From positions 5,416 to 69,415 of the forward strand of contig JAXGYI010000001.1 of assembly GCA_040772365.1 (NCBI GenBank): DNA of 64,000 nt, read 5' to 3'. Origin of the DNA: Candidatus Moraniibacteriota bacterium (lineage in GTDB: Bacteria; Patescibacteriota; Minisyncoccia; Moranbacterales; GCA-2747515). Below the pieces are notes generated by a model. That model saw nothing but the letters and a program-made list of their open reading frames with translations, was not told the origin of the DNA and ran no database searches. The translations under genes were made by a program, and so were the position numbers. Below are positions 4,753 through 61,337 of this stretch, piece by piece (the first letter of the stretch is position 1; each line of letters opens with the position of its first letter).

Positions 4753-5487
4753 AATATCCCCTCCCAAGATTTCATGAAAGAAAAAATCCCATATCGCGCC
4801 ACAAATACATATTCTTGTATTTTTAAGGGACGGCTGGGATCTGTTTATCCCGTAAAAACCACCAACTACGTTTTCTGTGACTTTTACGGAAATTACAGAT
4901 ATCAAGCGATTATAGCATTATTTTCATTTTCTGTCAATAGTTTTCCGTATTAAAATATTAAGTGGAGATATTGCATATTCAGTTAGCGCTAATAACAGTA
5001 TACCGCATAGCAACCACCTCTGTAAATAGTAGTGTAATGTAAATTCGTGAAATGTGAGTAGGTTATATATCATATAAAATACCTAATGAGGGTATTAGTA
5101 TATATTTATATAAATCTATTATTAGTTACTAGTATTGTGGATAAGTAGATAAGTGAGGAAAGTCCCTAAAGAATCACGTTTTAGTGTTACTAGGAGATGT
5201 TAGTGAATACGGAGTGCGTTGTGGGGAAAACCTAGGGAATTCTTAGGTTAGTTATTTACCCACATATCACACTGAGAATATATTCTGTTATACAGTGATT
5301 GTCGCGTGGTTATACCAAGAATGCTGTATACTTATAAACAGGTTATGTGGATAAAGTATAGATGTGTGGATAAGTTGTGAGTGTGTATATAGTTTTTTAA
5401 TTTAAATCGAGGTGAGTAGATGAAGATCAGTAAAATATTGATCTTTGTGAAATTTTATGTTATGATTGGCATTTATTAGCTTGTAGT

Positions 5488-8582: not shown

Positions 8583-9077
8583 ATGAAATATAAAGATCAG
8601 CGCGTGGCTGTTTTAGTGGATATTCAAAATCTCTACTACAGTGCACGTGTGCTCTATAGTAAAAAAGTCAACTTTAAAAATCTCCTAACAGCTGCAGTGG
8701 CGGATCGTAAATTAATTCGTGCAGTAGCTTACGGTATTTCTACAGAGGAGGCGCAGGAGGAGAAGTTTTTTGATGCCTTAGAAAAGGTGGGTTTTGAAGT
8801 AAAGGCAAAAGATTTGCAAATTTTTGCTGGTGGACAAAAAAAAGGTGATTGGGATGTCGGTATTGCAATTGATGCCGTAAAACTTGCAAAGACTGTAGAT
8901 GTAATCATTATTGCATCTGGTGATGGTGATTACGTACCACTTGTAGAATACATCCAAAATACAAATGGATGTCGCGTTGAGGGTATTGCTTTTGGCGAAT
9001 CTACAAGCACGCGACTTATTGAGTCGCTTGATGACTTCACTAATCTCTCAGATGATAAGCGGAAGTTTCTTATCTAG
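8583..9077 (+). CDS. NYN-domain (LabA/DUF88-like) protein, putative RNase
   Basis: VAVLVDIQNLYYSA ... IIIASGDGDYVPLV pattern of the NYN/LabA fold; 164 aa. Confidence 0.7.
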   Translation: MKYKDQRVAVLVDIQNLYYSARVLYSKKVNFKNLLTAAVADRKLIRAVAYGISTEEAQEEKFFDALEKVGFEVKAKDLQIFAGGQKKGDWDVGIAIDAVKLAKTVDVIIIASGDGDYVPLVEYIQNTNGCRVEGIAFGESTSTRLIESLDDFTNLSDDKRKFLI

Positions 9078-9194: not shown

Positions 9195-10018
9195 TCAGAC
9201 ATCTTCCGGCGAATCTCTCTTCCCCATAAGAGGTCTGGAGTAAGATTCACCGGGCGCCAAGTCGCCCGAAAAAAATATTTTATGGGCATGGCGCCCGGTA
9301 TAGTTCGCATGCACGAACATGTAACCTTTCGAGATTTTCTCGCATCGGGTGAGGTATGCGATCAATCTACTAGTGGAACATGTATTTTCTGTACATGCAT
9401 TTTTACGCATGGTATTCCCAGGTTACTTTTACCTGCGTTTTCTTCCACCATCCTACGGATTTCCCCTAATTTTTCTAAAGAACTTTCCACATTTTTTTAT
9501 ATTTTTGTTTGTGGCGATTACCTCCGACAATGCGAAGATAATGTTTTTATTTTTGTTTTGTGTACGAAGCCGGGAACTTTGAAAGACTTCGTGTGTAGTA
9601 ATAATTTTATTACTACAGTAGGACAGGGGAAGAATTTCCAATCACAAATAGGGGGAAATTGTGATTGGAAATTCTTCCTCCATCAAGATATGTTGTAAAG
9701 GTGCGTGTGAATAGTTCTCCTTCACTAGCTGTATACAACCATTATAGCATTTTACATACGCATCGTCAAAGGTAGTGAGGTTTTTTTATGATAAACACAG
9801 ACTTTTCTACGCTCTTTACGATTTAAAAAATACTATCACAACCACTGCGCAAAAAAGAAAGAAAGACTCTTTATAAGAACAGGTGATTTTTATCCACACA
9901 TTATACACAACTTCACAAGTTATCCACAGAATAGATGAGAGTTTGGTATGAAGAAGAAAAACATCACGCACAGAATCACTAGTTTCGTACGGATGTAAAA
10001 GGAAGGTTTGAAGTGGTA

Positions 10019-11116
10019 TTAGTAGCTAAACTCCGGCAGTGGTTCCTGATACGATGTTTTTTCATGTAACATGTCAAAAATTGCACGTAGTGTATTTTTT
10101 GATGTTCCGATAAGCCATTGCTTATTGAGTATGGCATAATCAATAGAGTAGGTTTCTTCCTCATTAAGATTGGTGTAGCGCAACGGTTTATTGTAATAAG
10201 TATTGTCTTGAAAGACAATGGGGTGTGTAGATATAACCTCAGATGAGAGAAAAGGTGCTAGCGCCTGCGAAAGCAGATGCTCTTGTGTTACGAGGGTTGA
10301 TTGTAGTACAAGGGGATCTTTAATATCTACAACGAGACCAAAGCGTATACCTGTTTCAGGATCGTTATAGGCATACAGTTCAAAGTTTTTATCTAAAACG
10401 GAGAGAATGTCTTCTGTGAGACCGAGTTTTGCTGCAAGGGCAAATTGGTGAAAAGATATGGGTGTAGTAGTGCTGTCAGTGACAATGAAAATTACTGGAT
10501 CTGTAGGTGACTGTTGTGAGAGCTGTGTGCGTATTGTGGAGAGCTGTGTTGTAATTTCTGTGGCAACAGAGGGGCTGGCGAGATCAATCGTAAAATAATT
10601 TGGTATACTCAGAGAATATGTAGAAGGTTCAGGTGTTGGATCTTCTTGTAAGGTGGGTATTTCTGGTTCATGTGGTGTATCTGGTGTAGGAGGAGGCGTC
10701 TCTTGTTTTTGTGTGGAGATATAATAATATGCCCCACCAGCTACAAAGAGTATAAGGAGAATACCGGCTGTAATAAGAAGAATCTTTTTCCAGGAAGACT
10801 TTTTCTGCTCTATTGGTTGTGGAGCATCTTGTAATTCTGGAGAAATGTCAGAAATAGCGTAATTGATCTTCTCTTGTTCACTGCTGGATGTTGGGGCAAA
10901 AGTATTTTTACCAATACCATCAGTTTCTGCTGATGGGGTATCAGAAAGGAAGGGGTTTGGTTCGGATGATTTTTTCGGTGATGAGGGTGTGGGTAAGGGT
11001 GTGTCGTGAGATGCTTGCGCGTTTTGCTGTGGTTGTGATTTTCGCGCAGCATTATCACTCTGTAGAGTGTGAACTTCGAAGGGCGTGGTGGGGTTTTTTT
11101 GATTTTTGTTTTCCAT
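10019..11116 (-). CDS. Hypothetical bitopic membrane protein with a disordered Pro/Ser/Thr/Gln-rich N-terminus
   Basis: 365 aa; single TM helix ILLITAGILLILFVAGGAYYYI; low-complexity flanks. Real start uncertain. Confidence 0.55.
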   Translation of the reverse strand: MENKNQKNPTTPFEVHTLQSDNAARKSQPQQNAQASHDTPLPTPSSPKKSSEPNPFLSDTPSAETDGIGKNTFAPTSSSEQEKINYAISDISPELQDAPQPIEQKKSSWKKILLITAGILLILFVAGGAYYYISTQKQETPPPTPDTPHEPEIPTLQEDPTPEPSTYSLSIPNYFTIDLASPSVATEITTQLSTIRTQLSQQSPTDPVIFIVTDSTTTPISFHQFALAAKLGLTEDILSVLDKNFELYAYNDPETGIRFGLVVDIKDPLVLQSTLVTQEHLLSQALAPFLSSEVISTHPIVFQDNTYYNKPLRYTNLNEEETYSIDYAILNKQWLIGTSKNTLRAIFDMLHEKTSYQEPLPEFSY

Positions 11117-17151: not shown

Positions 17152-17496
17152 CTATTCGTGGTTATCAGCATCGGATTGTAACAAGCGATCAATTACATCA
17201 ACTTCATCACCACGTGGATCATGAGCAAAAGATAGCCGTGGCAATATACGCATAGGCATTACCTTATGGAGATTTTTTTGTAACGTGTTGCGTTCGTGTT
17301 CCAAAGTAGCCATGGCATACGACAAGTCTTTTTGCGGAAAGACACGCACGAACACGCGAGTGTAGCGCATATCATCACTTGTGTCAACCTTTGAAATTGT
17401 CACAAAAACACCGGGTTTAAAGTTTATATCACGCGCCATGATTGCAGAGAGTTCTTTTTCGATGACGGCGTTGATTTTACGGATGCGCTCATGCAT
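17152..17496 (-). CDS. rbfA: Ribosome-binding factor A
   Basis: RbfA KH-like fold motifs (VTISKVDTSDDMRYTRVFVRVF). Confidence 0.8.
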   Translation of the reverse strand: MHERIRKINAVIEKELSAIMARDINFKPGVFVTISKVDTSDDMRYTRVFVRVFPQKDLSYAMATLEHERNTLQKNLHKVMPMRILPRLSFAHDPRGDEVDVIDRLLQSDADNHE

Positions 17497-18136
17497 AGAG
17501 ATGCTATAAAAAGGATAGTTGTATGCGTGTTTTTATACAATACACGATGGTGTCTGTCTCGATCAAAGTTGTGGTGTGCCCCATAGTATTTTCTGTGCGC
17601 GTGTTGTATAAAATCAATGCTTGCTCTAGTTTTTAGGTCTCTGTGACTAATATCACAGGTCGAAAAGTGTGTACGTGGAAGTTCTTTGCGGATGTCACCA
17701 CCCCAGATCTCAGAAAAATCATTCTTGCTATGTGGTACGCTCTGGTGCTTCTTTCCAGTTGGCACAAACTGAGTACAGTACAGTGTATGTTGTAGAAAGA
17801 AAATGCGATGGGAGATAGGCCATCACAGCAATGGTGGCTATGCGTGCAGTTGATAACGTGAATACTACAGATAGTGTGTAAAGCCTTTCTTTAAAGGCTC
17901 TTCCCTATTTTTAATGTAGCATACTATGAATAGACGTGTAAAGTGCGATTTTCATGACGAAATAATGTGCTACATAGCACGTCAACTCACTCAATGTAGT
18001 AACGTAAAATCCATGGATTGCTGTGTGATGTTGTAACACGTGGACCTATAGATGGGTAAGTTCCTCACTCTCTACAGGCTTCTATCAGTGTAAACCCTTG
18101 GTTTAAAGAGATTTTTGGTGAGATTTTTATGAGAGG

Positions 18137-18208
18137 TGCCCTTGGGAAGAATCGAACTTCCATCTAATCCTTAGGAGTGATTTGTTCTATCCATTGAACT
18201 ACAAGGGC
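18137..18208 (-). tRNA. tRNA-Arg (CCT) lying inside the long rbfA-nrdD intergenic region
   Basis: GCCCTTGTAGTTCAATGGATAGAAC, anticodon loop CTCCTAA, T-arm GGAAGTTCGATTCTTCC, acceptor CAAGGGC+A. There is an A-G mismatch at the bottom of the anticodon stem. Confidence 0.7.
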
Positions 18209-18372
18209 CTGGGGGACCCCCCCTTCCCTTTATTGTAGCGATTTTTCTGGAATCTTTCAATGAGGCTACGCAAGTGGTTATTATTAAAATATATTACATA
18301 AAATATGTCAAGTTTAAAATCCCCTATTTACTACACATTCTCTATAGTTGCACGATAATATTCTTCTCACCA

Positions 18373-19084
18373 TGTTCCACGTGGAACAGTGTGTATGCGA
18401 ATATATTTTCTACGAACTATGCAGTTTTTCCTTCTCGATTAAGAATTATACAATGATCTTTTAGTGATTTTTATAGGGTATTTGTAAATTTTTCATGTTC
18501 CACGTGGAACAATAAGCGAAAAGTAGTAATTTAGGGTTTTTCAGGATGTGTTCAGGTCATGCATATAGTATGATCTTTCCATTGTTCCACATGGAACAAT
18601 GGAAAGATGGGGTAATCTATAAAATAATATACTTACCTATGTTCAGATACTTAGTTTATTGGAGAGCCTAATTTTTTAGGGAAAAATTATACGCAGTATA
18701 CCACAAAATATATCTTTGGATCTTTTTGATAAAAACTTTCTTTGAATTTCATATTGTTCCACGTAGAACAAAATAAAGAACTATAAGGTGGGGGCTTTAT
18801 GGAGAAATACCACTAAAAGGTTCCACGTGGAACATTTTAGTGGGCGTATAGCGCATAAGATGCACTTTTAAGAGAATCTATCAAAACCTTACTTAGGGAT
18901 ACTGTTCTACGTGGAACAGTAAGTTAAGTTAAAATAACGCTCTTGATCTAGGTGTGGGATTTTTTTGTGAAGACGTATCGTTCTTTCAAGATATATATTT
19001 AAGAAATAACACAGTATTATCAAAAAAGCATTTTTAAAATCTTTATAAAAAGGATATTCTGAGCGCAGTGTTCCACATGGAACA
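18373..19084. repeat. Array of seven dispersed copies of a 16-bp palindrome (consensus TGTTCCACGTGGAACA) in the non-coding region upstream of nrdD
   Basis: Copies at 18373-18388 and 18496-18511 are perfect. Copies at 18582-18597 (CACATG core), 18755-18770 (1 mismatch), 18819-18834 (GGTTCC...), 18903-18918 (1 mismatch) and 19069-19084 (CACATG core) are variants. Spacings are 123, 86, 173, 64, 84 and 166 bp. Copy 3 extends to a 32-bp palindrome (18574-18605) and copy 5 to a 34-bp palindrome (18810-18843). Confidence 0.9.
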
Positions 19085-19237
19085 GTGTGCAGCGGTGTGC
19101 ACAGAGATATAATCGAAAAATTGCCCTTGTGGTATGATTGGATATAAAACCACAATATATAGTATGTTTGCATATCCTGTGGATAGGCTTCGCTTGCATC
19201 GGTTTTTTGAAAGTGCTACAATGAAAATGTTCAAAAG

Positions 19238-21406
19238 TTGAAAAGGGGTAAGAGTTTTTTCTTGCTTTTTTCTTTTATGCCAAAAACCCATATGACAGCA
19301 ACAAAAATCAAAAAACGAAATGGAACAATTGTGGATTTTGATGTGCGTAAAATTGAGCGGGCAATTACGAAGGCCGCAGAGGCGTCGCGCCCAACAAAGA
19401 AGATGGATGCCAAAAAGGTTGCGCAGTATGCGGTAACACGAGTTGGCAAAAAGTATGGCGATGCAATTCCTACTGTGGAACAGGTGCAGGATGCTGTGGA
19501 GGAGTCTCTGATTAAACACAATTATCCACAGGTGGCGAAGGATTATATTCTCTATCGACAGAAACGTACGGAAATACGTGAGGATCGCAATGTGATGGTG
19601 GATGTGGAGAAAACCATGGGAGAATATCTTGATCAAATCGATTGGCGGGTTAATGCGAACTCTAATCAGGGGTACTCGCTGGGCGGAATGATTTTGAATA
19701 CTGCAGGAAAAGTAACTGCAAATTATTGGTTGTCACATATGTATCCAAAGGCAATTGGCGATGCGCATCGCAATGCGGATGTGCACATTCATGATCTTGA
19801 TATGTTTTCTGGTTACTGTGCTGGTTGGAGTCTACGCGCGCTTTTAGAAGAGGGATTTAATGGTGTAGATAATAAAATTGAGTCCAATCCACCTAAGCAC
19901 CTCTCTAGCGCTGTGGCGCAAATGGTAAACTTTTTAGGAACACTGCAAAATGAGTGGGCGGGTGCACAGGCATTCTCTAGTTTTGACACCTATTTAGCAC
20001 CATTTGTCAAAAAAAAGGAGATGGAGACACGTGCTGCAATCAAAAAATATAAAATGACTTTTCCGTCGCCGAAACACAAAAAGGAATACATTCATAACCT
20101 CGTCTATGATTATGTGTACCAGAACATGCAATCATTTGTCTTTAATCTTAATATTCCGTCGCGCTGGGGGACACAAACGCCATTTACCAACATTACATTA
20201 GATTGGGTTTGTCCACCTGATCTCAAAAAAAAGACACTCCTTTTAGGAGGTAAGCCATTTACACACACATTCGGGGAGCTCCAGAAAGAGATGGATATGA
20301 TTAATAAAGCATTTATTGATGTGATGATGGCAGGGGACTCCAAGGGGCGTACGTTTACATTCCCAATTCCAACATATAATATTACGAAAGACTTTGATTG
20401 GGAGGATGAAAAGGTGTTGCCACTGTTTGAAATGACTGCGAAATATGGTACACCCTACTTTCAAAATTTCATTAATTCAGATCTTGATCCTGGTGACGTG
20501 CGATCCATGTGTTGTCGATTGCAGCTAGATCTCAAGGAGTTGCGTAAGCGCGGCGGTGGATTATTTGGATCTGCGGAAATGACGGGATCTATTGGTGTAG
20601 TGACAATTAATTTGGCACGTATTGGTAAGATGACAGCGGGTGACAAAGAAGCGTTTTTGGAGCGCGTAACGTATTTGATGGAACTTGCAAAAACATCACT
20701 AGAAATTAAGCGAGAGGTTATTCAAAAGTGGATTGATCGTGGGCTTTTCCCCTACACGCGGCGGTATCTCGGAACACTTAAAAATCATTTTTCTACGATT
20801 GGTGTAAATGGAATGAATGAGGCGATTCGCAATTTTACGAATGATCGGGAAAATATTGCATCGCCATTTGGACAAGCATTTGCCAAAGAGGTCCTAGAAT
20901 ACATTCGTGGGAAAATGTCGGACTTTCAAGAAGAAACTGGTAACCTCTATAACCTGGAGGCAACGCCTGGTGAAGGAACAACATATCGCTTTGCTAAGGA
21001 AGATCAGAAGCGTTTTAAGGATATTTTGCAGGCCGGTACAAAAGAAACGCCATATTATACGAACTCTAGTCAGCTGCCAGTGGGATATACTGATGATATA
21101 TTTGAAGCATTGGATTTACAGGATGATTTGCAGAAGAAGTATACGGGCGGAACTGTGTTTCATGGGTATATGAGTGAGCGCATTAGTTCTGGTGCGGCAT
21201 GTGCGCAGTTAGTGAAAAAGATTTTGACGAACTATCGATTACCTTATATCACCATTACACCAACATTTTCCATTTGTCCAAAACATGGTTATCTAGCAGG
21301 AGAATATGATTTTTGCCCGAGGTGTGATCTCGATCTTGGCATACGCAAGGAGCACTGCGACAGTGAATTTCGCGGACGCTACGAAAGTGCGCATGCGGAG
21401 CGATAG
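19238..21406 (+). CDS. nrdD: Anaerobic (class III) ribonucleoside-triphosphate reductase, large fragment lacking the C-terminal glycyl-radical domain
   Basis: N-terminal ATP-cone (KIKKRNGTIVDFDVRKIERAI); the stretch CCRLQLDLKELRKRGGGLFGSAEMTGSIGVVTINLARIG is typical of NrdD; a C-terminal Zn-ribbon-like CPKHG...CPRCD. The ORF stops about 25 aa after the Zn site without an RVxGY motif. The real start may be the ATG at 19292. Confidence 0.85.
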   Translation: MKRGKSFFLLFSFMPKTHMTATKIKKRNGTIVDFDVRKIERAITKAAEASRPTKKMDAKKVAQYAVTRVGKKYGDAIPTVEQVQDAVEESLIKHNYPQVAKDYILYRQKRTEIREDRNVMVDVEKTMGEYLDQIDWRVNANSNQGYSLGGMILNTAGKVTANYWLSHMYPKAIGDAHRNADVHIHDLDMFSGYCAGWSLRALLEEGFNGVDNKIESNPPKHLSSAVAQMVNFLGTLQNEWAGAQAFSSFDTYLAPFVKKKEMETRAAIKKYKMTFPSPKHKKEYIHNLVYDYVYQNMQSFVFNLNIPSRWGTQTPFTNITLDWVCPPDLKKKTLLLGGKPFTHTFGELQKEMDMINKAFIDVMMAGDSKGRTFTFPIPTYNITKDFDWEDEKVLPLFEMTAKYGTPYFQNFINSDLDPGDVRSMCCRLQLDLKELRKRGGGLFGSAEMTGSIGVVTINLARIGKMTAGDKEAFLERVTYLMELAKTSLEIKREVIQKWIDRGLFPYTRRYLGTLKNHFSTIGVNGMNEAIRNFTNDRENIASPFGQAFAKEVLEYIRGKMSDFQEETGNLYNLEATPGEGTTYRFAKEDQKRFKDILQAGTKETPYYTNSSQLPVGYTDDIFEALDLQDDLQKKYTGGTVFHGYMSERISSGAACAQLVKKILTNYRLPYITITPTFSICPKHGYLAGEYDFCPRCDLDLGIRKEHCDSEFRGRYESAHAER

Positions 21407-21458
21407 AATGACTGATAAATTATGATATACTATAAATAATTAGTAAAAAAATAAAACT

Positions 21459-21650
21459 ATGGCATCACAAGTGCTAAAAGGGGATAATAATGAGGGGCGT
21501 ACACCGTGTGAGGTGTGGACACGTGTAATGGGGTACTTTCGTCCTGTGTCATTTTTCAACACTGGCAAGAAATCTGAACACTATTCACGTAAGCATTTTC
21601 AGGAGTGTGTGAGTGCCAACGAAAGCTTTACCAATAAATATGCTGATTAG
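21459..21650 (+). CDS. Stand-alone glycyl-radical domain (NrdD C-terminal module / GrcA-like), 63 aa
   Basis: TRVMGYFRPVSFFNTGKKSEHYSRKHF closely matches the NrdD glycyl-radical motif (TRVxGYxxxxxxxNxGKxxExxxR). It lies in a different frame from nrdD and is separated from it by about 50 AT-rich nt with stops in all frames. Confidence 0.7.
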   Translation: MASQVLKGDNNEGRTPCEVWTRVMGYFRPVSFFNTGKKSEHYSRKHFQECVSANESFTNKYAD

Positions 21651-22344
21651 CGGGATTCAACCATTTACACTTCTGGATTATCCGGACAAGGTGGCAGCGA
21701 TTATTTTCACCCCAGGGTGTAATATGCGCTGCCGCTTTTGTCACAACAAAGAATTTGTTTTGCCGGAAGAAATCGCCAAAATACGCACAAGCTTCATTGC
21801 GGAAAAGACTATTCTGAATTTTTTGCGATCGCGCAAGGGCAAATTGGATGGTGTGGTGATTTCCGGTGGTGAGCCGACGGTGCAGCCAAACTTGCGGAAA
21901 TTTATTGAAAAAGTGCGCGCAATGGGTTTTTTGGTGAAATTGGACACTAATGGCAACTTGCCGGACGTACTGAAAAGTTTGGTAAAGGATAGGTTGGTGG
22001 ATTATGTGGCAATGGACGTGAAAACGACGCCGGATCGCTATAAGGCGCTTGTTGGTGATATGGCTAATCCAGATAGTGTAGTGAAAAGCATTGCTTTCCT
22101 TAAGAAAAATCATGTACCCTATGAATTTCGTACAACATTGATTGCCGGGGAACACACACCAAAAGTGATCAAGGACATGGCAGATCTCCTTGCAGGTGCC
22201 GATACGCTGTATTTACAGACATTTCGCCCGGAGACGACACTGGATCCGGCATTTGAAGAGAAGGGGTTTATAGCCGAAACTACTGTGAATCGCTATGCGA
22301 ACATTTTTATGAAAAAGAGTGTGCGCTGTGTCTTTTTGCGATAA
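21613..22344 (+). CDS. nrdG: Anaerobic ribonucleotide reductase activating protein (radical SAM)
   Basis: CNMRCRFCHN is a CxxxCxxC radical-SAM motif; it directly follows nrdD. The start may be the internal Met at 21640. Confidence 0.85.
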   Translation: MPTKALPINMLISGIQPFTLLDYPDKVAAIIFTPGCNMRCRFCHNKEFVLPEEIAKIRTSFIAEKTILNFLRSRKGKLDGVVISGGEPTVQPNLRKFIEKVRAMGFLVKLDTNGNLPDVLKSLVKDRLVDYVAMDVKTTPDRYKALVGDMANPDSVVKSIAFLKKNHVPYEFRTTLIAGEHTPKVIKDMADLLAGADTLYLQTFRPETTLDPAFEEKGFIAETTVNRYANIFMKKSVRCVFLR

Positions 22345-22402
22345 AAAAACACTCAATTTTGTAAATTAAAGAGTGTTTCTTTAAGATTCCGAAGGAAGAA
22401 GA

Positions 22403-22699
22403 TTATTCTGGGAATCTTTCAGTTCTTACAACACCGCTCCCATCAGAATACACTTCTTGTTCCGGTACATTATCCATAATCTTTCTGCGTTCCTCATCAA
22501 AAACCTGAATCACACTTGGAGCCTCTTCATCGGAAACCACTGCAAGTTTTTCAACCAATGCCTTGAGCATTAAGACATCTTTGTTTACACCATCACCCAT
22601 ATACGCTCTAACTATCTGTTCCTTTTTTTCACTCAGCTCCGCCAAGAGATCATCACTAAGAATCTCTTTTTTCGGGGACTTAGATTCAAACATGTTCAT
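22403..22699 (-). CDS. Hypothetical acidic protein (98 aa)
   Basis: ORF only. Confidence 0.4.
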   Translation of the reverse strand: MNMFESKSPKKEILSDDLLAELSEKKEQIVRAYMGDGVNKDVLMLKALVEKLAVVSDEEAPSVIQVFDEERRKIMDNVPEQEVYSDGSGVVRTERFPE

Positions 22700-22807
22700 A
22701 GTATTTTGTGAAATTAATAATAATCACTACTTCTTATAGTATAATAAAAGGCCCAAAAAATAGCAAATACTATTTTTTGGGCTTCATATTAACTTAGTGC
22801 ACTTAAC

Positions 22808-23224
22808 TTAGTGCGCACCGTGACGTGCAACGGTGCAATAAGCCTGAAACAAGGGATTATTTTTTAATTCCCCCATGTCCAGCGGCTGGTTATCTGTTGA
22901 CTGTTTTTTTTCATAACAGATAATTTGCTGGTAGATTTTTCCCCAGGTATTATCCGGTAGTTTTTTGTACACCATGCTGAGAGAAAATTGCTGGGGCGGT
23001 GTGTTTTTTGTGATTTCTTGAAACGCTTTCATAAACTCACAAAAATCGTATTCTATGACCGCATTGGTCTTCCCCATCCCTTGAAGTGTTTGGTAGTTTT
23101 CTACCAAAGACTCCTGCAAGAGCATAATTGCAGCACGTGCCACAATATCCATCTCGTTCTCAGTTGTCATAACAAAGTTTCCTCCACTGTAGTGTTTGAA
23201 TGATAACGAACATTGGTCTCTCAA
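22808..23224 (-). CDS. Hypothetical protein (138 aa or shorter)
   Basis: ORF only. Confidence 0.4.
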   Translation of the reverse strand: MRDQCSLSFKHYSGGNFVMTTENEMDIVARAAIMLLQESLVENYQTLQGMGKTNAVIEYDFCEFMKAFQEITKNTPPQQFSLSMVYKKLPDNTWGKIYQQIICYEKKQSTDNQPLDMGELKNNPLFQAYCTVARHGAH

Positions 23225-23308
23225 GCTTATAGATTATAGGGTATTTTACAAGTTTGTCAAGGGCACGTATACTTAATTTTAGGTATAATATGCAATAAAA
23301 AATATCCT

Positions 23309-24232
23309 ATGAACAACAAAGTAACAATTATCGGTGCGGGAATGGTGGGGTCAACAGTGGCATATAGCCTTGTGCTGCAGAGCTTTGTAGACGAAATTGC
23401 TATGATTGACCTCAACCAAGACTTATTACGTGCCCAGGTTATGGATTTGCAGCATACAGTACCATTTGTGGATCGCGCAGAGGTGAAAATGGGCACATAT
23501 GCGGACTGTGTAGATAGTCGCATGGTTGTCATTACATGCGGTGCAGCACAAAAACCTGGTGAGTCGCGTCTAGAATTAGTACAAAAAAATGCGACCATTA
23601 TAAAGGAAATTATGCCAAAAATTTTTGAGCATAATCCCAATGCAATTGTGCTCATGGTCACCAACCCTGTTGATGTGTTGACGCGATTAGCTGTATCTCT
23701 TTTTCCTGACAAAAGGAACCATATTTTTGGCACCGGGACTGTTTTGGATTCTGCACGCTTGCGACATTTATTGGGTCAAACACTGCATATTAGCGCACAG
23801 AGTATTCACGCATACATGCTTGGTGAGCATGGCGATAGTGAATTTCCTGCATGGAGTACAGCAACGATTGGCAATATGCGGTTGCAGGACTGTAAAATGC
23901 TACACGATGAGGAGAAAATGCGTATCTTTCAAGAGGCGAAAAATGCTGCGTATACGATTATTGAGGGCAAACAGTCAACGTACTATGCTATTGGCGCAGG
24001 GTGTGCACAAGTAATTTATGCTGTTATGCGAGATGAAAAAGTTGTACTTCCAGTGTCGCACATGATCAAGAATTTGTACGGCATCTCGGAGACATGTCTC
24101 AGTATGCCAGCGATTGTTGGCGTGGATGGCATTGAGGATCGTTTACACGTCCCACTCAATGAGCACGAGCAAGATCTTTTACGAAAGAGCGCAGAAGTGC
24201 TACAAGAAACTTTTGCAGCAGTTCATAGCTAG
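23309..24232 (+). CDS. ldh: L-lactate dehydrogenase
   Basis: Rossmann motif TIIGAGMVGS; substrate loop GAAQKPGESR (Gln typical of LDH rather than MDH); GEHGDSEF active-site region. Confidence 0.85.
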   Translation: MNNKVTIIGAGMVGSTVAYSLVLQSFVDEIAMIDLNQDLLRAQVMDLQHTVPFVDRAEVKMGTYADCVDSRMVVITCGAAQKPGESRLELVQKNATIIKEIMPKIFEHNPNAIVLMVTNPVDVLTRLAVSLFPDKRNHIFGTGTVLDSARLRHLLGQTLHISAQSIHAYMLGEHGDSEFPAWSTATIGNMRLQDCKMLHDEEKMRIFQEAKNAAYTIIEGKQSTYYAIGAGCAQVIYAVMRDEKVVLPVSHMIKNLYGISETCLSMPAIVGVDGIEDRLHVPLNEHEQDLLRKSAEVLQETFAAVHS

Positions 24233-24285
24233 AACGTGTACGGAGTTGCAGCGCCTCTATATGCTTTCACTGTAAATAGCAGGAA

Positions 24286-25491
24286 TCAGTAGATAACGAC
24301 AGGTGTTCCAACAGAGGCCCAGTGGTAGATTAATTCAGAGTTTTTTGCATCGTGGCGAACGCAGCCAGGTGAGACTGCGCGTCCAATGCTTGCTGTACTC
24401 TCCTTGCCGCCCTCAGGCATCTCTTCATGGCCCTCTGGCCAAATAACAAGTCCGTGGATGCCATACTCGCCGTTTGCTGTGAATGCCATCCAGTATGGCA
24501 TGTAGACGCCGAGGAGGTTTGAGAGTGCATACGGGTCTTTATTGTGAATTGTAAATGTTCCGGTTGGCGTTGGTGTTGCTGCTGCACCGGATGAGTTTGC
24601 AAAACTTGTAATATATTTTCCATGATCAAATAGTGTTGTGACTTGTGCAGCAAGATTAACATCAATATATTTTGTGTCAGTGATGCGTGGCGCTGTAGAC
24701 TTTTTTGCAATTGTAAGGCGTTCATCAATAGGTGTCGGCCATACATCCGGTGTAGATGTGACAGTAGTAAAAGTTTTTGTAGTAATGGGGTAGAATGCCT
24801 GGGCCGGTGCAGATGTGTGACGGACAAAAATGGTGACATTATGTGATCCGGCGATATGTTCTGGTATAGTGCCAATGCGGAACTGTGCGGCGTTGGGGTT
24901 GTCAGTCGGCACCCTTTCTACGTCAATAGAGGGTTGTATAGTCGCACTGAACTCAAAGGCGGAGATGTCACGATCGAATGTGAATGTGATAGTGTCGTCT
25001 TCTTTAAGATAATCATCGTGATCAATGATTGTACTCGCAATGACATGTGGATAAGTGTGGGTAGTGAAATGAAAAATTTGCGATAAATTGGTGGGTGAGA
25101 CAGCGGATCTAAGGGGTAAGGCGAGAGAGTAGGTCGTTTCTGCATCCCACAGTGTTTGGGGGATGATGCGCAACTCTTGAGGTGTGATCCATGTAAAACG
25201 TAGTGTCTCAGAGGGAAAACAGGTAACCTGCTCCTGGTATGCAGATGGATTAGTGATCGGATGGGTAAAAGTGATGATAATCTCTTCATCAAGTGCAATA
25301 ATCTCATCGGTGATTACAAGAGGTTCTGGCTGTACAGAATTGGGAGGGTTGTGTATAGGCACTGTCAGCGCTGTGCTAAAAGAGGATAGCGGTAAAAAGG
25401 CAAATAGCAAAAGCGCTACATTGGTGCGCAGAGGTGTGTGGCGTGGTTGCCGAAGGTTTTTTTTGTGTGTCAGCGATGAAAGTACAGGCAT
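24286..25491 (-). CDS. L,D-transpeptidase (YkuD domain) with an N-terminal membrane anchor and a Thr/Pro-rich linker
   Basis: C-terminal catalytic region YGIHGL...ASIGRAVSPGCVRH (the H...S-x-GC-[IV]-R signature). Confidence 0.7.
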   Translation of the reverse strand: MPVLSSLTHKKNLRQPRHTPLRTNVALLLFAFLPLSSFSTALTVPIHNPPNSVQPEPLVITDEIIALDEEIIITFTHPITNPSAYQEQVTCFPSETLRFTWITPQELRIIPQTLWDAETTYSLALPLRSAVSPTNLSQIFHFTTHTYPHVIASTIIDHDDYLKEDDTITFTFDRDISAFEFSATIQPSIDVERVPTDNPNAAQFRIGTIPEHIAGSHNVTIFVRHTSAPAQAFYPITTKTFTTVTSTPDVWPTPIDERLTIAKKSTAPRITDTKYIDVNLAAQVTTLFDHGKYITSFANSSGAAATPTPTGTFTIHNKDPYALSNLLGVYMPYWMAFTANGEYGIHGLVIWPEGHEEMPEGGKESTASIGRAVSPGCVRHDAKNSELIYHWASVGTPVVIY

Positions 25492-25697
25492 AGGTATAGT
25501 TTGGATACAAAAAAGAGCTGCTCACATTATGAAATGTGACAACTCACCCTGTAACACATCTATTATAGCATTTTTTTATCATTCATTCAAGCACTTGTGT
25601 GCATAGTGTCTTGCAGGCTAGTTGCACAACTTATAAAGAAGTTGTTGCATAAAAAAAATGTGCTATACTGTAAAGTAGTAAAAATAAAATTTTTCTT

Positions 25698-26678
25698 GTG
25701 TCTATACGATTTAGCTATAATACAGTGGCATTTGCAGTATTTTGTGTATTGATTGTTGCTGCATGTACAGTGTATGTTGTTGCAGATGAGGCAAAAAATC
25801 TGACGCTTTTTGAAGATTTTGATCAGGACGGCCTCTCTAATGGTGAGGAATATGCTTATGGCACTAATCCATATCTTGCTGATACAGATGGCGATGGATA
25901 CTCTGATGGTGTAGAAGTAGAAAGTGGGTTTGACCCACTCAAGCCTGCACCTGGAGATAAAATTATTAAAAAAGATACGACGCCTAGTGTTGATCCAGCT
26001 CATACTACAGCAACAAATATGACGCAGCGTATCTCCAATAGTCTCATCACGTATCTTGAGGATCAAAAGGAAATGGGAGCAGAATCTATCAATTCAGAGG
26101 ATTTATCTGATGTTGTTTCCAAGGCCATTGATCAGGATGCAGCTTTTGTAACTCCCGATGTTATTGATTTGTCACATGTTTATATTAAAAAACAGGATTA
26201 TGACAAAGTGTCCTCGCGAGAAAAAAAGGAACACATGAAGAAAGATATCGTAGAGTACTTTACATCACTGTCCTATGTTTTTATCAGTAGTTTTCCGCAA
26301 GGGTATTTTGATCGTGCGCCAGAGGAAGTGCAGAAGGAATTGTTTTTACACATCTCAGAATACTCTTCATCACTGACATCGTACAGCTATTTTGAAGATA
26401 TGGCACGTCGATCTATTGAGGCGCAAAAGCAAATGCACAGCCTTACTGTTCCAGAGAATGTTCTGGATATACATATGGAAACGTTATATCTCTTGCGATA
26501 TATGGAAGAGATTTATAATCAAGGAGATTATAAAAAAATCAACACAGATGAAGCTTCTCTCATTGCAACATTGGCACAGGTGCAGGCACTGCTGCAAAAA
26601 AGCATGGATCTACAGACAAAAGTAGAGGCACGGCTCTTAGAATACGATTTACCTATTGATTCTTTTTTGCAAATATAA
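25698..26678 (+). CDS. Secreted protein with thrombospondin-type-3-like Ca-binding Asp repeats
   Basis: Signal/TM segment FAVFCVLIVAACTVYVVA; repeats DQDGLSNGEE, DTDGDGYSDGVE. Confidence 0.55.
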   Translation: MSIRFSYNTVAFAVFCVLIVAACTVYVVADEAKNLTLFEDFDQDGLSNGEEYAYGTNPYLADTDGDGYSDGVEVESGFDPLKPAPGDKIIKKDTTPSVDPAHTTATNMTQRISNSLITYLEDQKEMGAESINSEDLSDVVSKAIDQDAAFVTPDVIDLSHVYIKKQDYDKVSSREKKEHMKKDIVEYFTSLSYVFISSFPQGYFDRAPEEVQKELFLHISEYSSSLTSYSYFEDMARRSIEAQKQMHSLTVPENVLDIHMETLYLLRYMEEIYNQGDYKKINTDEASLIATLAQVQALLQKSMDLQTKVEARLLEYDLPIDSFLQI

Positions 26679-49379: not shown

Positions 49380-49464
49380 AGATCAGGTATTTCAATATAG
49401 AAACAGTGTACGCTTGTGCATACTCCAGCATAGCACGTGCTGTGTGTTTCGTGAATTCGTGTGT

Positions 49465-49493
49465 TTGACGACTGTGATTTTTTCTGCTATAAT
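49465..49493 (+). promoter_or_regulatory. Consensus-like promoter TTGACG-17-TATAAT, followed immediately by a hairpin plus U-run (49511-49553)
   Basis: TTGACG at 49465-49470, 17-nt spacer, TATAAT at 49488-49493. ATCGGGTGA...TCACCCGAT+TTTTT hairpin about 20 nt downstream. Confidence 0.45.
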
Positions 49494-49619
49494 AGACATA
49501 TGAATGATGAAATCGGGTGAATCATCAGTCACAGACTGTCACCCGATTTTTCTTTGGTCAGGAAAAAAGTGGTGGCATGCAATATATTGCAGTGTAATCC
49601 ACCATATAACAATACACAT

Positions 49620-49838
49620 ATGTCAGATGAAATGAAATGCCCAACATGCGGTTGCAAGTGCAGTGCCGCAGCAGTGGGCGCGGAACAACAAGCACCGGTT
49701 GTAGAAACACCCGATGCACCGCAAATGAAAAGCTTTCGTTTGCACCGCCAATCTATTCAGGACACAGAATTTGCCGTCTTGCTTGCGTTGGTCCCCGCGA
49801 TGACGATGACACTCTTTAACTTAATGGGACTGTTGTAA
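49620..49838 (+). CDS. Small Cys-rich tail-anchored protein (73 aa): N-terminal CPTCGCKC cluster and a C-terminal hydrophobic helix
   Basis: MSDEMKCPTCGCKCS...EFAVLLALVPAMTMTLFNLMGLL. The ORF is bracketed by the leader hairpin and a strong terminator at 49866-49903 (ACACCCTCCTTC...GAAGGCGGGTGTTTTTT). Confidence 0.4.
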   Translation: MSDEMKCPTCGCKCSAAAVGAEQQAPVVETPDAPQMKSFRLHRQSIQDTEFAVLLALVPAMTMTLFNLMGLL

Positions 49839-50947
49839 TTCACCATACGGTGATCTTCCAAACAAAACACCCTCCTTCTCGACCGGAAGGCGGGTGTTTT
49901 TTATCCGTGATAGGAATTTTTTTATATATCCCCGGACAGTACTAAAATCCAACCCAGGGCATGTCCTAAGATGGATCTTGCGCGCAATAAGAGTATTTCT
50001 AAAAAATATACATGTCACCACAGGATGGGAAGTCTGAGCTAATCAGACAATTGGACAGAACGTGTGAAAAATAAAAAACCCGCCATGTCCTATACGAAGG
50101 AGTGGCGGGTATCTTTCTAGTATTTTTATTTTTACAAGTCTACACAATCATAGGCATCACCTCCTCGATAATTCGGCTGGTGTCATGTGGTATAAGAGAG
50201 CACGTCGTTATTGACGCAAGCTCTTGACCACATGATACCCATGCATAGTTGACCCATGCATAGTTGTGTGCTGTATGTGATTGTTAAAATAACGACACTC
50301 ATACCATAACGGCATATTATAGCACTATAGTACAATCTTGTCAATAGCACAAAACCGCATAAAATGCACATTTTTTGACAGGGGACGATGCCGTGCTATA
50401 GACAATCCCTCTCACGGACCATTCCCACAGGATTTTTTGTGATCCATTGGCTCGGAGCTATTGGCGGGTATTGCGAAATATATGACGTGCTGCCAATAAA
50501 AAAACCGCATGTCGCGGATGATAGGTGGCTCAATTTTAAGAGCGAGGCTGTAGATACAACATCGCTCTTGGAAGCAGGGGAGCCTCGTAAGGCTATGTTG
50601 GTCATTTTACGACCATTGTCTTGAAGGTCTCATCGTACCCTACTTCCCTAAATGTTTTTTCGCCCTGGCAAAGGGCATTCGCGCTATGCGCATGTGAGAT
50701 TTTTTTTCATAGGCATTACTCCTATAAAAAAATGAATAAAGAGAACCCTCTTAAAATCTAGAGAATTCACCCAAATCTCTACATATTCTAATTATAGCAC
50801 ACTTTTGCATTGTATGCAAGCGACGTGGGAATTAGCGCGTGAAGGGTGTAGACATTTTTTTTGGAAAATGGTACTGACTGGCGGTATGTGCATGTACAAA
50901 AAGAAAAAGCGAGTGGAGGGCACTCGCTTTTTGCTGGATTGTACATG

Positions 50948-57643: not shown

Positions 57644-58768
57644 ATGGCAAACGAAAATCTCACCAAGGCAAAAAACGCCAAAAACGACGAGTTCTATACG
57701 CAATTTGAAGATATCCAAAAAGAGATCAACGCGTATTTGGAATACGACCCCGATACCTTTCGGGACAAAGTCGTCTATTGCAACTGCGATGATCCCTATG
57801 AAAGCAAATTCTTTCAATACTTCGTGCTTAATTTCAAAGTTTTGGGACTCAAAAGCCTCATCACCACCAGCTACAAGCCTTCTCCCATTGCCAATACACA
57901 ACTATCCCTCTTTGGCGATCACAAAACCATTCGTCCCAAAAAAGGACGTCCAAAAGTCACTGCCAACCGCTTTATTCTCAATGATGTGGGGGATTATAAC
58001 AACGATGGTGCATTCAACGCCAAGGACGTCGCACTGCAACTACAAGAAAACAAAAACAACGAATGGGCACCACTTGAAGGAGATGGTGATTTTCGCTCTG
58101 AAGAGTGCATCGATCTTCTTCGGCAAGCAGATATTGTCGTGACCAATCCGCCTTTTTCACTCTTTCGGGAATACATAAAGCAATTGTCAGACTATGAGAA
58201 AAAATTTGTAATTATTGGAAATAAAAACATCATAACCTATAAGGAAGTTTTTCCTCTTATTAAAAACAATAAAATGTGGGTTGGTGCAACTAGTTTTAAT
58301 AAGGACATTCTTTTTATAGCTCCGCCAAATGCTGATCTTAGCAGTAAACCAAGAACGGCAATTCGGGAAGTAGATGGTGTTACCTATTTACGGTCGCCTT
58401 CTGTTTGGTTTACTAATCTTGACCACGGGCGACGTCATCAGTCACTTGAATTAATGTCTATGGCAGATAACCGTAGATTTAACAAAAAAGTTGCTAAAAG
58501 TAAGACTGCATATAAAAAATATGATAATTACGACGCAATTGAAGTGCCGTTTACTGATGCGATTCCTAAAGACTACGATGGCGTGATGGGCGTGCCAATT
58601 TCATTTCTTGATAAATACAATCCAGATCAGTTTGAGATTTTGGGAGCGACAGAAAGCGAGGGTAGAGGTTTTTCAAATGGACTTTGGGACGAATCAAGTA
58701 AAGTTTCACAGCCGCTTGTAGGCGGTGGCAGGGTTTACAAAAGGATTTTTATTAGGTTTAAGAGGTAA
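57644..58768 (+). CDS. N6-adenine DNA methyltransferase, EcoRI-methylase-like family (NPPF motif)
   Basis: N-terminal KNDEFYTQ...KVVYCNCDDPYESKFFQYF resembles M.EcoRI as I recall it. Catalytic motif IV is VVTNPPF. The 3' half of the gene (from about 58190) is markedly AT-rich. Confidence 0.65.
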   Translation: MANENLTKAKNAKNDEFYTQFEDIQKEINAYLEYDPDTFRDKVVYCNCDDPYESKFFQYFVLNFKVLGLKSLITTSYKPSPIANTQLSLFGDHKTIRPKKGRPKVTANRFILNDVGDYNNDGAFNAKDVALQLQENKNNEWAPLEGDGDFRSEECIDLLRQADIVVTNPPFSLFREYIKQLSDYEKKFVIIGNKNIITYKEVFPLIKNNKMWVGATSFNKDILFIAPPNADLSSKPRTAIREVDGVTYLRSPSVWFTNLDHGRRHQSLELMSMADNRRFNKKVAKSKTAYKKYDNYDAIEVPFTDAIPKDYDGVMGVPISFLDKYNPDQFEILGATESEGRGFSNGLWDESSKVSQPLVGGGRVYKRIFIRFKR

Positions 58769-58780
58769 ATTTTACAAATT

Positions 58781-59230
58781 ATGGAAACAGGATATCTGTG
58801 GCCAATAGCTTTGGCTGTTGTGGGATCTGGTTTTGTGTCAACTATTTTGACAATTGCCAATAGTTGGGCAAAGGATTATTTCTTAGCAAAAAGAGAAGCG
58901 AAAGACGATGTTTTTAAGATTAGAAAAGATATACATAATGATTTTGTTGAATACATGGATTTTTTATATAAAAATGATTTATCAGACAATGAAAGAGCCA
59001 AAAAGAAATACCATTTTTTGAAGACCTACAGAATGATTTTTTTATATTCTGCCGATGAGGATGTGAAAAAAATAAATAAAATGATTGAAGCAAATATAGA
59101 CCTTGTACAAAAAGATGATCCGTACATGCAAGACAAGAAAAATAAAGTTGCTGAAAGTTTTTTACAACTAAGAAAACACACAATAAAAGATACGTCTTTG
59201 AGTGTGGATGATTTTCTGCATATAACTTAA
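58781..59230 (+). CDS. Hypothetical N-terminally membrane-anchored protein (149 aa) in the low-GC island
   Basis: TM helix LWPIALAVVGSGFVSTILTIA, then a charged domain. AT-rich codons. Confidence 0.5.
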   Translation: METGYLWPIALAVVGSGFVSTILTIANSWAKDYFLAKREAKDDVFKIRKDIHNDFVEYMDFLYKNDLSDNERAKKKYHFLKTYRMIFLYSADEDVKKINKMIEANIDLVQKDDPYMQDKKNKVAESFLQLRKHTIKDTSLSVDDFLHIT

Positions 59231-59253
59231 TAGACGCGTGGCATAATAAGGAG

Positions 59254-59919
59254 GTGAATTGTATGAAAAAAAGGTATATAGGGAAAATCAAATTAAATGG
59301 TAAAACATTTATAAACCTAATTTGTAATAGCAAAGGAGACTATATATTTTCCTTTCCAAAATCTAGTGATATTTTAGATGAAGGGGGCTATTTCAGATCA
59401 CATCTTACACTGCACATACAAAACAATCGATTAACATGGAAGGTTACAGACTTTGGAAATTCTACAAAAGATTTTAGCGATGTACTTGGTGTTGCCGACA
59501 AGGAGGGTTTTTATGTATCTCGAAATCAGGGATTATTGAATGACATTGATCTTTTAAAAGGAGAAAGATATTTAGATTTAGAAGATCCCACACATGTTGG
59601 GAAGGTTATTACTTTTGCTGAGAGAAATATACATAAAAAGGGAAGTGGATTAGATTTTTTTTCTGACCCCAAGAATGATGAAAAAAAATTTTCTGAAATT
59701 ATTAATCTTCAGATACCAAAAAAAATTTCTGCTGTAGAGTTAAATATATATGCTGCAAAGAATATAAAATATAATCTAAATCGTATCTATAACATGCGTC
59801 AATCTAATTGGAAGTCAGGCTGTTTTATTCAAGATAATACTAAAAACGCAAAGTATACTTTTGTTGTAATAGTTGAGGATTCCGTATTTAATCCTATTGG
59901 AGGTTATAATTTCTGTTAA
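59254..59919 (+). CDS. Hypothetical protein (221 aa) in the low-GC island
   Basis: ORF tightly following the previous gene; no recognised motif. Confidence 0.5.
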   Translation: MNCMKKRYIGKIKLNGKTFINLICNSKGDYIFSFPKSSDILDEGGYFRSHLTLHIQNNRLTWKVTDFGNSTKDFSDVLGVADKEGFYVSRNQGLLNDIDLLKGERYLDLEDPTHVGKVITFAERNIHKKGSGLDFFSDPKNDEKKFSEIINLQIPKKISAVELNIYAAKNIKYNLNRIYNMRQSNWKSGCFIQDNTKNAKYTFVVIVEDSVFNPIGGYNFC

Positions 59920-60173
59920 TTAGTGCCAAAGTCCTTCGATCCATTGTTTTTTGTAGTCATATCTTTTTTGAATGACATGTGTAAACAAAATAAGAAAAAT
60001 CGTGAAAAACGGTGAAAAAAGTTGGTCAATTCACGACTTTCTTGCAAAAATCGTGAAAGTAGTGTGAAATAGGGGAAAGAAGCAGAGTGCTTTTTGGATG
60101 AGGGCGCGCGAAAAATTGGCACGTGCGGTGATCTTGTCACGCTTAACTAATCAATACATCACAGTAGCATCAC

Positions 60174-61337
60174 ATGAAAACAACATTACGCACCGACATT
60201 ACGGTGAGAGAACTTTGCGATGGATTTGTGTACAACGAATTAGAAGGTAAGGGGCTTTTTGGTTTGTCGGGGAAATTAACGATCCAGCCGGAATACCAAC
60301 GTAACTATATCTATGCCGACGGCAAGAAGGATGTGGCAGTGATTGAGTCAATTTTAAAGGGTTATCCTTTGGGCTTAATTTATTTTAACAAGGTAGAAGA
60401 GGACACATTTGAGGTATTGGATGGGCAGCAGCGGATCACGAGCATCGGACGCTACGTAACAGGAAAATTTGCAGTAAAAGATGAAAGTGGGATGGAGCAG
60501 TTTTTTCATGGCTTAGCAGCGGATAAACAGAAGAAAATTTTGGAGACGACCTTATTAATTTATGAGTGCGAGGGAGAAGAGAGTGAAATTAAAGATTGGT
60601 TTAAAACCATTAATATTGTGGGTGTGGCGTTGAATGAGCAAGAGAAGTTGAATGCGATTTATTCTGGACCGTTTGTGACACTAGGCAAGGAGGAGTTTAG
60701 CAATTCGCAAAATGCCAATGTGCAGAAGTGGAGTGCCTATGTTTCCGGCAGTGTGAATCGGCAGGATTTTTGGGAGCGGGCGCTTTCGTGGGTGAGTCGG
60801 GGAGATGTTGATAGCTACATGAGCCGGCATCGGTATGATGACAACATTACAGAGGTGAAGACGTATTTTACCAGTGTAATTGATTGGGTATCCGGTGTGT
60901 TTGTGGATGTGACAAAGGACATGCGCGGGTTGGAGTGGGGGCGCCTATACGAAGCCTATCATGAGACTGCATATGATCCGTCGGAGGTAGCGGCGCATGT
61001 GCAGCGATTGTATGCAGATCCCTATATCAAAAACTATAAAGGTATTTTTGAGTATATTCTGGGTGGCTTGACGGATACAAAACTATTGCATGTGCGGGTG
61101 TTTGATGAGGCAACAAAAAGATCTGTCTATGCTGCGCAGACGGCAGAAGCAAAGAAGTTGGGCAAGTCCAATTGTCCGCTATGCGCCATTGGGCATGATG
61201 CCAACAACATCAAAATATGGAACAGTACTGACATGGATGCTGATCATGTGACGGCATGGAGTAAGGGCGGTGCGACGGACGCGGCAAATTGCCAGATGTT
61301 GTGCAAAACACACAATCGCGCAAAAGGTAATCGCTAG
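60174..61337 (+). CDS. DUF262 (ParB/Srx-like, GmrSD N-terminal type) domain fused to a C-terminal HNH nuclease motif
   Basis: N-terminal [10 protein letters not shown] and DGQQRITS (DUF262 hallmarks). C-terminal CPLCAIGHD...[12 protein letters not shown]...[15 protein letters not shown] is an HNH with two Cys pairs. Confidence 0.7.

Follow-up and report, generated by a model that had tools for sequence, protein, structure and literature searches.

A dense parS-type palindrome array near the predicted replication origin as the probable chromosomal centromere of a Candidatus Moraniibacteriota bacterium

The four origin-proximal parS sites of Pseudomonas are spread over several kilobases and share the origin region with parAB, in the large genomes of Myxococcus xanthus and Streptomyces coelicolor the sites extend over tens to hundreds of kilobases, and in sopC of the F plasmid a plasmid-specific motif is repeated directly in regular tandem units, each with an inverted repeat bound by SopB. 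In a published compilation the number of parS sites per chromosome ranges from 2 to 22, with 22 sites in M. xanthus and 21 in S. coelicolor (review PMC7022226). The 16-nt string TGTTCCACGTGGAACA is the wild-type parS2 and parS3 of Pseudomonas aeruginosa (Jecz et al., 2015; PMC4368675, Table 1) and the parS of Pseudomonas putida, the 22 M. xanthus sites read TGTTCCACGTGGAACG, one base off it (both in review PMC7022226, Table 1), and parS consensus sequences of the TGTTNCACGTGAAACA type have been described for other phyla (review PMC7022226). Here we analyzed a 64,000-nt stretch of the genome of a Candidatus Moraniibacteriota bacterium (contig JAXGYI010000001.1, positions 5,416 to 69,415 of the forward strand), referred to below as the window, in which seven copies of this palindrome are clustered in a long intergenic region between rbfA and nrdD. 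These palindromes are very probably parS sites that form a chromosomal centromere, the predicted ParB loading zone of a ParABS/SMC system.

Matches to TGTTCCACGTGGAACA at up to two mismatches were found seven times in the window (two perfect copies and five with one mismatch each), and all of them lie inside 18373-19084. The number expected by chance is 0.01, and none of 100 shuffles reached seven. Across the 64 kb no copy was detected beyond the 712-bp array at this threshold, and relaxing it to three mismatches added just two unrelated matches, at 29586 and 53221. The motif scan thus agrees with the original prediction, which had described seven locally confined palindromes with irregular spacing. 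The start-to-start distances between consecutive copies are 123, 87, 172, 64, 84, and 166 bp (range 64-172 bp), and no helical phasing was evident on inspection of these spacings. The array region contains no plausibly coding open reading frame (ORF) of at least 100 amino acids. The putative parS features, identified by the motif scan, are the following:

18373..19084: whole array, seven palindromes in 712 bp of non-coding DNA (motif scan, ORF scan, and orthologous arrays in the relatives L001, L118, L129, and L158)
18373..18388: parS copy 1, TGTTCCACGTGGAACA, perfect, identical to P. aeruginosa parS2/parS3
18496..18511: parS copy 2, TGTTCCACGTGGAACA, perfect
18573..18608: parS copy 3, core 18583-18598, TGTTCCACATGGAACA, one mismatch, within a 36-bp palindrome
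18755..18770: parS copy 4, TGTTCCACGTAGAACA, one mismatch
18810..18843: parS copy 5, core 18819-18834, GGTTCCACGTGGAACA, one mismatch, within a 34-bp palindrome
18903..18918: parS copy 6, TGTTCTACGTGGAACA, one mismatch
19069..19084: parS copy 7, TGTTCCACATGGAACA, one mismatch; its ortholog is the last L001 copy (9802), and the ACAT centre is common to both
18032..18047: degenerate parS-like 16-mer, TGTAACACGTGGACCT, four mismatches, a weak eighth copy inside a strain-specific 640-bp segment, probably non-functional

An exact-string full-text literature search with the 16-mer led to papers on chromosome partitioning. The motif, for which the site of an unknown regulator had been one of several earlier candidates, is the canonical parS and agrees with the general parS consensus: two of the copies match P. 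aeruginosa parS2 and parS3 at every base, and the remaining five differ from them by one base. The substitutions within the array also resemble those among the P. aeruginosa sites, since parS5 of that species, TGTTCTACATGGAACA, has the C-to-T change as well as the ACAT centre that are seen here (PMC4368675, Table 1). The related string TGTTCCACGTGAAACA is the Bacillus subtilis parS employed in ParB biochemistry. The earlier suggestion of a dimeric binding site is upheld; 'partition iterons' had in fact stood among the candidates.

The same locus was then compared among relatives. The closest named relatives of the NrdD protein belong to metagenome-assembled genomes (MAGs) of Magasanikbacteria, Patescibacteria, Gracilibacteria, and Peregrinibacteria (65-73% identity). 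The contig L001, with an NrdD 92% identical to that of the window, has 14 copies of the motif between tRNA-Arg and nrdD (L001 8298-9817). Three metagenomic contigs represent deeper syntenic relatives. L129 (RbfA 45% identical) carries a 3D-domain gene, UDG, DHH, rbfA, tRNA-Arg, and tRNA-Ala, after which 12 copies extend to the end of the contig; L118 (RbfA 39% identical) carries DHH, rbfA, tRNA-Arg, tRNA-Ala, 14 copies, a TSP3-repeat gene, tRNA-Val, FtsH, and TilS; and L158 has 8 copies followed by a TSP3-like gene and tRNA-Val. A block from nrdD to a YkuD-domain gene (19238-25606) separates the array of the window from the same TSP3 gene at 25698. Arrays of 7 to 14 copies are thus found at rbfA/tRNA-Arg in five genomes. 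Because they stay there with or without nrdD, we conclude that the array is anchored to rbfA/tRNA-Arg and not to nrdD. The distant nrdD-bearing loci of the Candidate Phyla Radiation (CPR), L002-L013, have no parS near nrdD, which further argues that nrdD is not the anchor.

Comparative alignment of the region, proposed earlier as a check, demonstrated that the sites and their locus are kept and the spacers have diverged. Apart from the tRNA, the parS cores, and the nrdD leader with its promoter, nothing is recovered in the alignment of the intergenic regions of the window and L001; the spacers are unalignable, whereas the 16-mers remain within one mismatch of the consensus. No motif copies were found outside the arrays on the relatives' contigs. 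The motif, whose genome-wide count had also been proposed, is therefore confined to the array within the 64-kb window and absent from the flanks of the relatives. In a tally of 55 copies from the five genomes, half-site positions 4 (T) and 7 (A) are invariant in 110 of 110 half-sites, which is a signature of protein recognition. Variation is concentrated at position 5, the degenerate N of the parS consensus (C in 97, T in 12), and at the central CpG (C in 95 and T in 15 of the 110). Compared with their flanks, the sites are thus under purifying selection. The arrays appear to grow by segmental duplication, as an 86-nt unit with two sites is repeated 254 bp apart in L001 and the flanks of four sites recur ~525 bp downstream in L129. 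With respect to the database records, L001 (CAYRUU010000001.1), L002, L004, L007, and L008 are labelled 'uncultured Micavibrio' or 'Gammaproteobacteria', and these labels look wrong: NrdD similarity, plus gene content and synteny in the case of L001, places all five MAGs with Patescibacteria.

The array lies ~13 kb from a predicted origin of replication (oriC):

4906..5487: predicted oriC, an AT-rich intergenic region of 582 bp (63-72% A+T), placed by DnaA boxes and the cumulative G-C minimum

Perfect DnaA boxes are located at 5136, 5346, and 5365 and a box with one mismatch at 5256, and further boxes follow at 5505, 5841, and 5898; the densest 1-kb interval holds 7 of the 46 boxes (at most one mismatch) found in the 64 kb. 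Cumulative G-C is lowest at 4.8-5.0 kb. To the right of this minimum GC skew is positive over 59 kb, the minus-strand genes at 10-13 kb included, and to its left it is negative for at least 10.5 kb, of which 5.6 kb lie beyond the window and were read from the same-strain contig L205. The related strain L204 has the same DnaA-box cluster and skew switch, with negative skew for 8 kb. A DnaA-box cluster combined with a negative-to-positive skew switch is the signature of oriC, which would put the array in the origin-proximal position of chromosomal parS sites. Other features were noted in the vicinity. Type IV secretion system (T4SS)-like genes (PrgI, TraC-like, and VirB4-like) begin directly left of the predicted oriC. 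A perfect 20-nt inverted repeat is present at 9628-9647 / 9659-9678, and two perfect DnaA boxes 30 bp apart, at 9890 and 9920, lie upstream of a 365-amino-acid ORF (10019-11116, minus strand); this pair of boxes is conserved in L001, at 286 and 305.

The association of the motif with partitioning genes was assessed in other genomes by a metagenomic scan for two copies of GTTCCACRTGGAAC spaced 44-74 bp apart, which returned at least 120 contigs. Among the contigs listed, a ParA-type Walker A motif (KGGxGKT) was found within 1.5 kb of the motifs in 61 of 120, a ParB box (GERRxRA) within 3 kb in 35 of 120, and either signature beside the motif pair in 65 of 120, many of the others being too short to show their neighbours. 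In a control of 1.34 Mb of nrdD-centred loci, the ParA pattern had no match and the ParB pattern three, in a context that did not look like ParB as judged without Pfam. In L104, L131, and L177, Pfam confirmed a ParA ATPase together with a ParB protein containing the ParB_N, HTH_ParB, and ParB_C domains; the motif clusters of these three contigs occupy the rsmG-parA or gyrB-parA gap. The motif therefore co-occurs with parA and parB in other genomes. Two further groups of contigs stood out. Fifteen contigs classed as viral (L210-L224, IMG/VR) have close parS motif pairs with no ParA or ParB signature nearby, and in L150 (2419-3199), L111 (1450-1758), and L140 (11950-13189), with GC content of 0.25-0.28, parS sites are situated just beyond the gyrA-homologous stretch.

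Several observations weigh against a chromosomal centromere at this locus. Neither ParA nor ParB was detected in the window by Pfam analysis of ~50 ORFs or by a six-frame motif search, and no parAB genes were found in the 5.6-kb left extension, which carries T4SS-like genes, or on the contigs of the four syntenic relatives. The window also has no dnaA gene, so that oriC is placed by prediction only, and the genes left of the skew switch are all on one strand, whose bias may contribute to the negative skew. The parS assignment is thus based on motif identity, position, conservation, and the association with parAB elsewhere, rather than on a demonstrated protein partner. We infer that the genome encodes a cognate ParB that binds these sites. 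On this assumption, a ParB dimer would recognise each 16-bp palindrome through its helix-turn-helix domains; everything that follows binding, which we likewise infer, would involve the uptake of CTP (cytidine triphosphate) by ParB, its closure as a sliding clamp, and its escape onto the adjacent DNA. With 7 to 14 loading sites in ~1 kb, the loading flux would be high and would produce one large partition complex beside the origin, which ParA, if present, would pull and from which SMC would be loaded.

A parS array is an ordinary kind of element, and what is somewhat unusual in this case is, first, its density and its separation from parAB and, second, the copy-specific palindromic extension of its flanks, although the latter is shared by parS clusters in general. 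The array shares with P. aeruginosa and P. putida the identical 16-mer, the location near the origin, and the same tolerated variants, but unlike in Pseudomonas no parAB lies within ~60 kb of it. Many parS sites are present in the origin region, as in M. xanthus and S. coelicolor, and in this small-genome lineage there is one site per ~60-130 bp, depending on the genome. With 7 to 14 sites in 0.7-1.5 kb, the array is denser than the textbook parS cases, whose sites are spread more widely. It resembles sopC in being a dense, dedicated non-coding array of palindromes for a ParB-family protein, but differs from it in the irregular spacing (33-316 bp across the clade), the unrelated spacers, and the universal chromosomal parS motif. 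In comparison, four of the 10 parS sites in P. aeruginosa are origin-proximal and lie partly inside genes (PMC4368675), whereas here the sites occupy dedicated non-coding DNA. The parS clusters in the rsmG(gidB)-parA gap of L104, L131, and many metagenomic contigs have the same motif in close copies (7 in 350 bp in L104); however, they are located where the parAB promoter lies, whereas the array described here has no link to parAB and keeps a fixed place next to rbfA/tRNA-Arg.

The genes and promoter-like sites that border the array are as follows:

17152-17496, minus strand: rbfA, left of the intergenic region
18135-18208, minus strand: tRNA-Arg(cct), the left array boundary
18260-18232, minus strand: promoter-like site of tRNA-Arg, TTGAAA-17-TACAAT, oriented leftwards, away from the array
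19150..19291, plus strand: putative nrdD regulatory region, the right array boundary, as read from sequence
19150-19165: NrdR-box-like palindrome CCACAATATATAGTAT, upstream of nrdD
19194-19199, plus strand: candidate nrdD -35 element, TTGCAT
19214-19222, plus strand: candidate nrdD extended -10 element, TGCTACAAT

The array is followed on the right by the NrdD gene and a radical-SAM activase gene. Judging from the 704-amino-acid gene call in the same-strain contig L081 and the 705-amino-acid ATG ORF in L001, the most likely start codon of nrdD is the ATG at 19292, and the intergenic region accordingly spans 17497-19291. The long gap with its tRNA-Arg is thus as originally described, although its right end moves from 19237 to 19291. 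The 19150-19291 block has a nearly identical counterpart in L001, even though the adjacent spacers cannot be aligned; the block upstream of tRNA-Arg also looks conserved in L001 on side-by-side reading, but the alignment does not pair those blocks. The NrdR box has the 16-bp consensus acaCwAtATaTwGtgt and is usually found at nrd promoters. The parS repeat does not fit this consensus, and the NrdR-like box at 19150-19165 is a separate element, in agreement with the earlier statement that the repeat is not an NrdR box; the statement that it is not a LexA box was likewise upheld. No transcription is expected through an array placed between two outward-facing promoter-like sites, and the stretch between the divergent promoters in which the array lies is probably free of transcription, an arrangement also found for the array of L118. 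The rbfA-nrdD intergenic region also includes a 640-bp non-coding segment between rbfA and tRNA-Arg (17497-18134), where L001, L118, and L129 have only ~28-90 bp; no homolog of this segment was found in any compared locus besides same-strain contigs.

The flanks of some copies extend the palindrome. Copy 3 has perfect 17-nt arms (18573-18589 / 18592-18608), and copy 5 has 19-nt arms with one mismatch, spanning 18810-18843. Both long palindromes had been reported before and both exist, but they are slightly larger than stated (for copy 3, 36 bp at 18573-18608 instead of 32 bp). As single-stranded DNA hairpins, copy 3 folds with -16 kcal/mol (z -7.3) and copy 5 with -12.6 kcal/mol (z -6.5). In L001 the ortholog of copy 5 (core 9248-9263) forms a palindrome with 10-bp arms (9238-9273), which is kept between the two genomes via a compensatory A:T to C:G double change. 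The L001 paralog at 8994 shares its left flank with copy 5 and the L001 ortholog of copy 5, whereas its right flank is unrelated; the copy-5 palindrome therefore arose by inverted copying of one flank. Perfect additional palindromy of at least 6 bp was found in 13 of 96 copies from 11 arrays, compared to 0.11% in a cross-copy null. When the window, L001, and the metagenomic loci (L084-L203) were divided by GC content, the frequency of such extensions was 20.6% at GC <0.45, 5.4% at 0.45-0.60, and 3.5% at >0.60, with a null of 0.1-0.2%, an excess of ~35- to 90-fold depending on the GC class. Copy-specific flank palindromy is therefore a general feature of clustered parS sites and is strongest in AT-rich genomes. 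Nearly every copy in L150 and L111 has a private palindromic extension of 5-9 bp. In the window, extension is slight or absent in five of the seven copies, which nonetheless keep the 16-mer.

Hairpin-templated strand switching at perfect palindromes is an established mutational process that can extend the arms without selection, and in our view it provides the simplest explanation for the extensions. The earlier point that the flanks differ between copies yet remain self-complementary is statistically confirmed, and a structural function is not needed to explain it.

Among the other explanations, the one that survives best would add to the parS array rather than replace it: a ParB complex bound there may repress or insulate the tRNA-Arg and nrdD promoters. 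A precedent exists in P. aeruginosa, where ParB at the intergenic sites parS3 and parS4 represses the adjacent PA0011 and PA0013 (review PMC7022226), and both flanking promoters are within ~110-130 bp of the outermost parS copies. However, the right neighbour varies among the relatives (nrdD versus the TSP3 gene), so that selection is unlikely to act on any such regulation. By analogy, a side effect of bound ParB on nrdD or tRNA-Arg expression is possible, although we consider a regulatory role proper doubtful.

It is also conceivable, but rather improbable, that the centromere of this clade is a dedicated, fixed regional array of 7 to 14 parS sites in ~1 kb, uncoupled from parAB and growing by segmental duplication, whose hairpin extensions are selected, for example as cruciform or transcription-insulating elements that shape ParB loading. 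If so, the excess of extended palindromes around clustered parS sites in all GC classes would suggest that bacterial centromeres have a structural feature that has gone unrecognised. A literature search for parS combined with cruciforms returned nothing relevant.

If the palindromes were selected for structure alone, without protein recognition, they could be bidirectional terminators, hairpins of small RNAs, sites of cruciform formation, or similar elements. The copy-specific extensions far above the null, the stable folding of copies 3 and 5, the compensatory change that maintains the copy-5 palindrome in L001, and the terminator-like appearance of copy 5 on both strands all fit such elements. 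On the other hand, the copies that lack extensions retain the 16-mer, and it is the sequence that is conserved and not mere pairing, as the invariant half-site positions demonstrate. In addition, T-runs are missing from most copies, no Rfam match was obtained, the promoter-like sites on both sides point away from the array, and the extensions can arise unselected by strand switching. We therefore regard a purely structural role as very unlikely. A terminator scan flagged only copy 5 and one G/C hairpin beside the tRNA, and the Rfam search, at both gathering and E-value thresholds, found only the tRNA in this region; a terminator array and a known RNA family were accordingly rejected.

The leading idea of the original prediction, an operator array for a dedicated transcription factor of the anaerobic ribonucleotide reductase operon nrdDG, had in its favor the location of the array upstream of nrdD in both the window and L001 and the suitability of palindromes for a dimeric regulator. 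It is contradicted by synteny: L118 and L158 keep the array at rbfA/tRNA-Arg with the TSP3-repeat gene next to it, and there is no nrdD on the L118 contig. Retention of the array without an adjacent nrdD in two relatives rules out a dedicated nrdDG operator array. Furthermore, the last copy is ~110 bp upstream of the nrdD -35 element, with distances of up to 800 bp for the other copies; nrdD is preceded by a conserved NrdR-box-like site of its own; and the repeat corresponds to the canonical parS, which is found beside parAB in unrelated genomes. An nrdDG operator thus retains hardly any probability.

The least probable reading, dispersed repetitive extragenic palindromic (REP) or miniature inverted-repeat transposable (MITE) elements or iterons for the replication of an integrated element such as a plasmid, would account for a short palindromic repeat in non-coding DNA and for the T4SS-like genes at the left end of the window, but can be dismissed, as the remaining 63 kb of the window and the flanks of the arrays in the relatives have no further copies, there are no terminal repeats, target duplications, or Rep gene, the chromosomal synteny DHH-rbfA-tRNA-Arg is conserved across deep divergence, and the DnaA boxes cluster 13 kb away from the array. 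A CRISPR or TIGR guide-RNA array was also rejected, in line with the earlier statement that the copies are not CRISPR repeats: the spacing is irregular, no cas or tas domains were found among the ~50 ORFs, and there is no Rfam match.

Two regions unrelated to the array were noted in the window. The 1.57-kb segment upstream of gyrA (49380-50947) has no ORF longer than 94 amino acids and no Rfam match. The low-GC island at 57644-61337 (GC 0.335 at 58-60 kb) contains genes for an EcoRI-type adenine methyltransferase and a GmrSD-like DUF262/HNH endonuclease as well as two uncharacterised ORFs, and is probably a defence island.

The reading of the seven palindromes as parS sites explains an apparently mysterious repeat array as a centromere and, in combination with the DnaA-box cluster, fixes the location of the origin region in an uncultured bacterium with a small genome. 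Among the papers searched, none joins ParB, parS, and Patescibacteria, and those on ParB and the Candidate Phyla Radiation include nothing relevant; as far as we found, chromosome segregation has not been studied in this lineage. The array therefore provides a specific site at which the segregation of chromosomes in these bacteria can be tested, and its dense, parAB-uncoupled layout and the general excess of palindromic extensions are small, testable leads on the evolution of bacterial centromeres.

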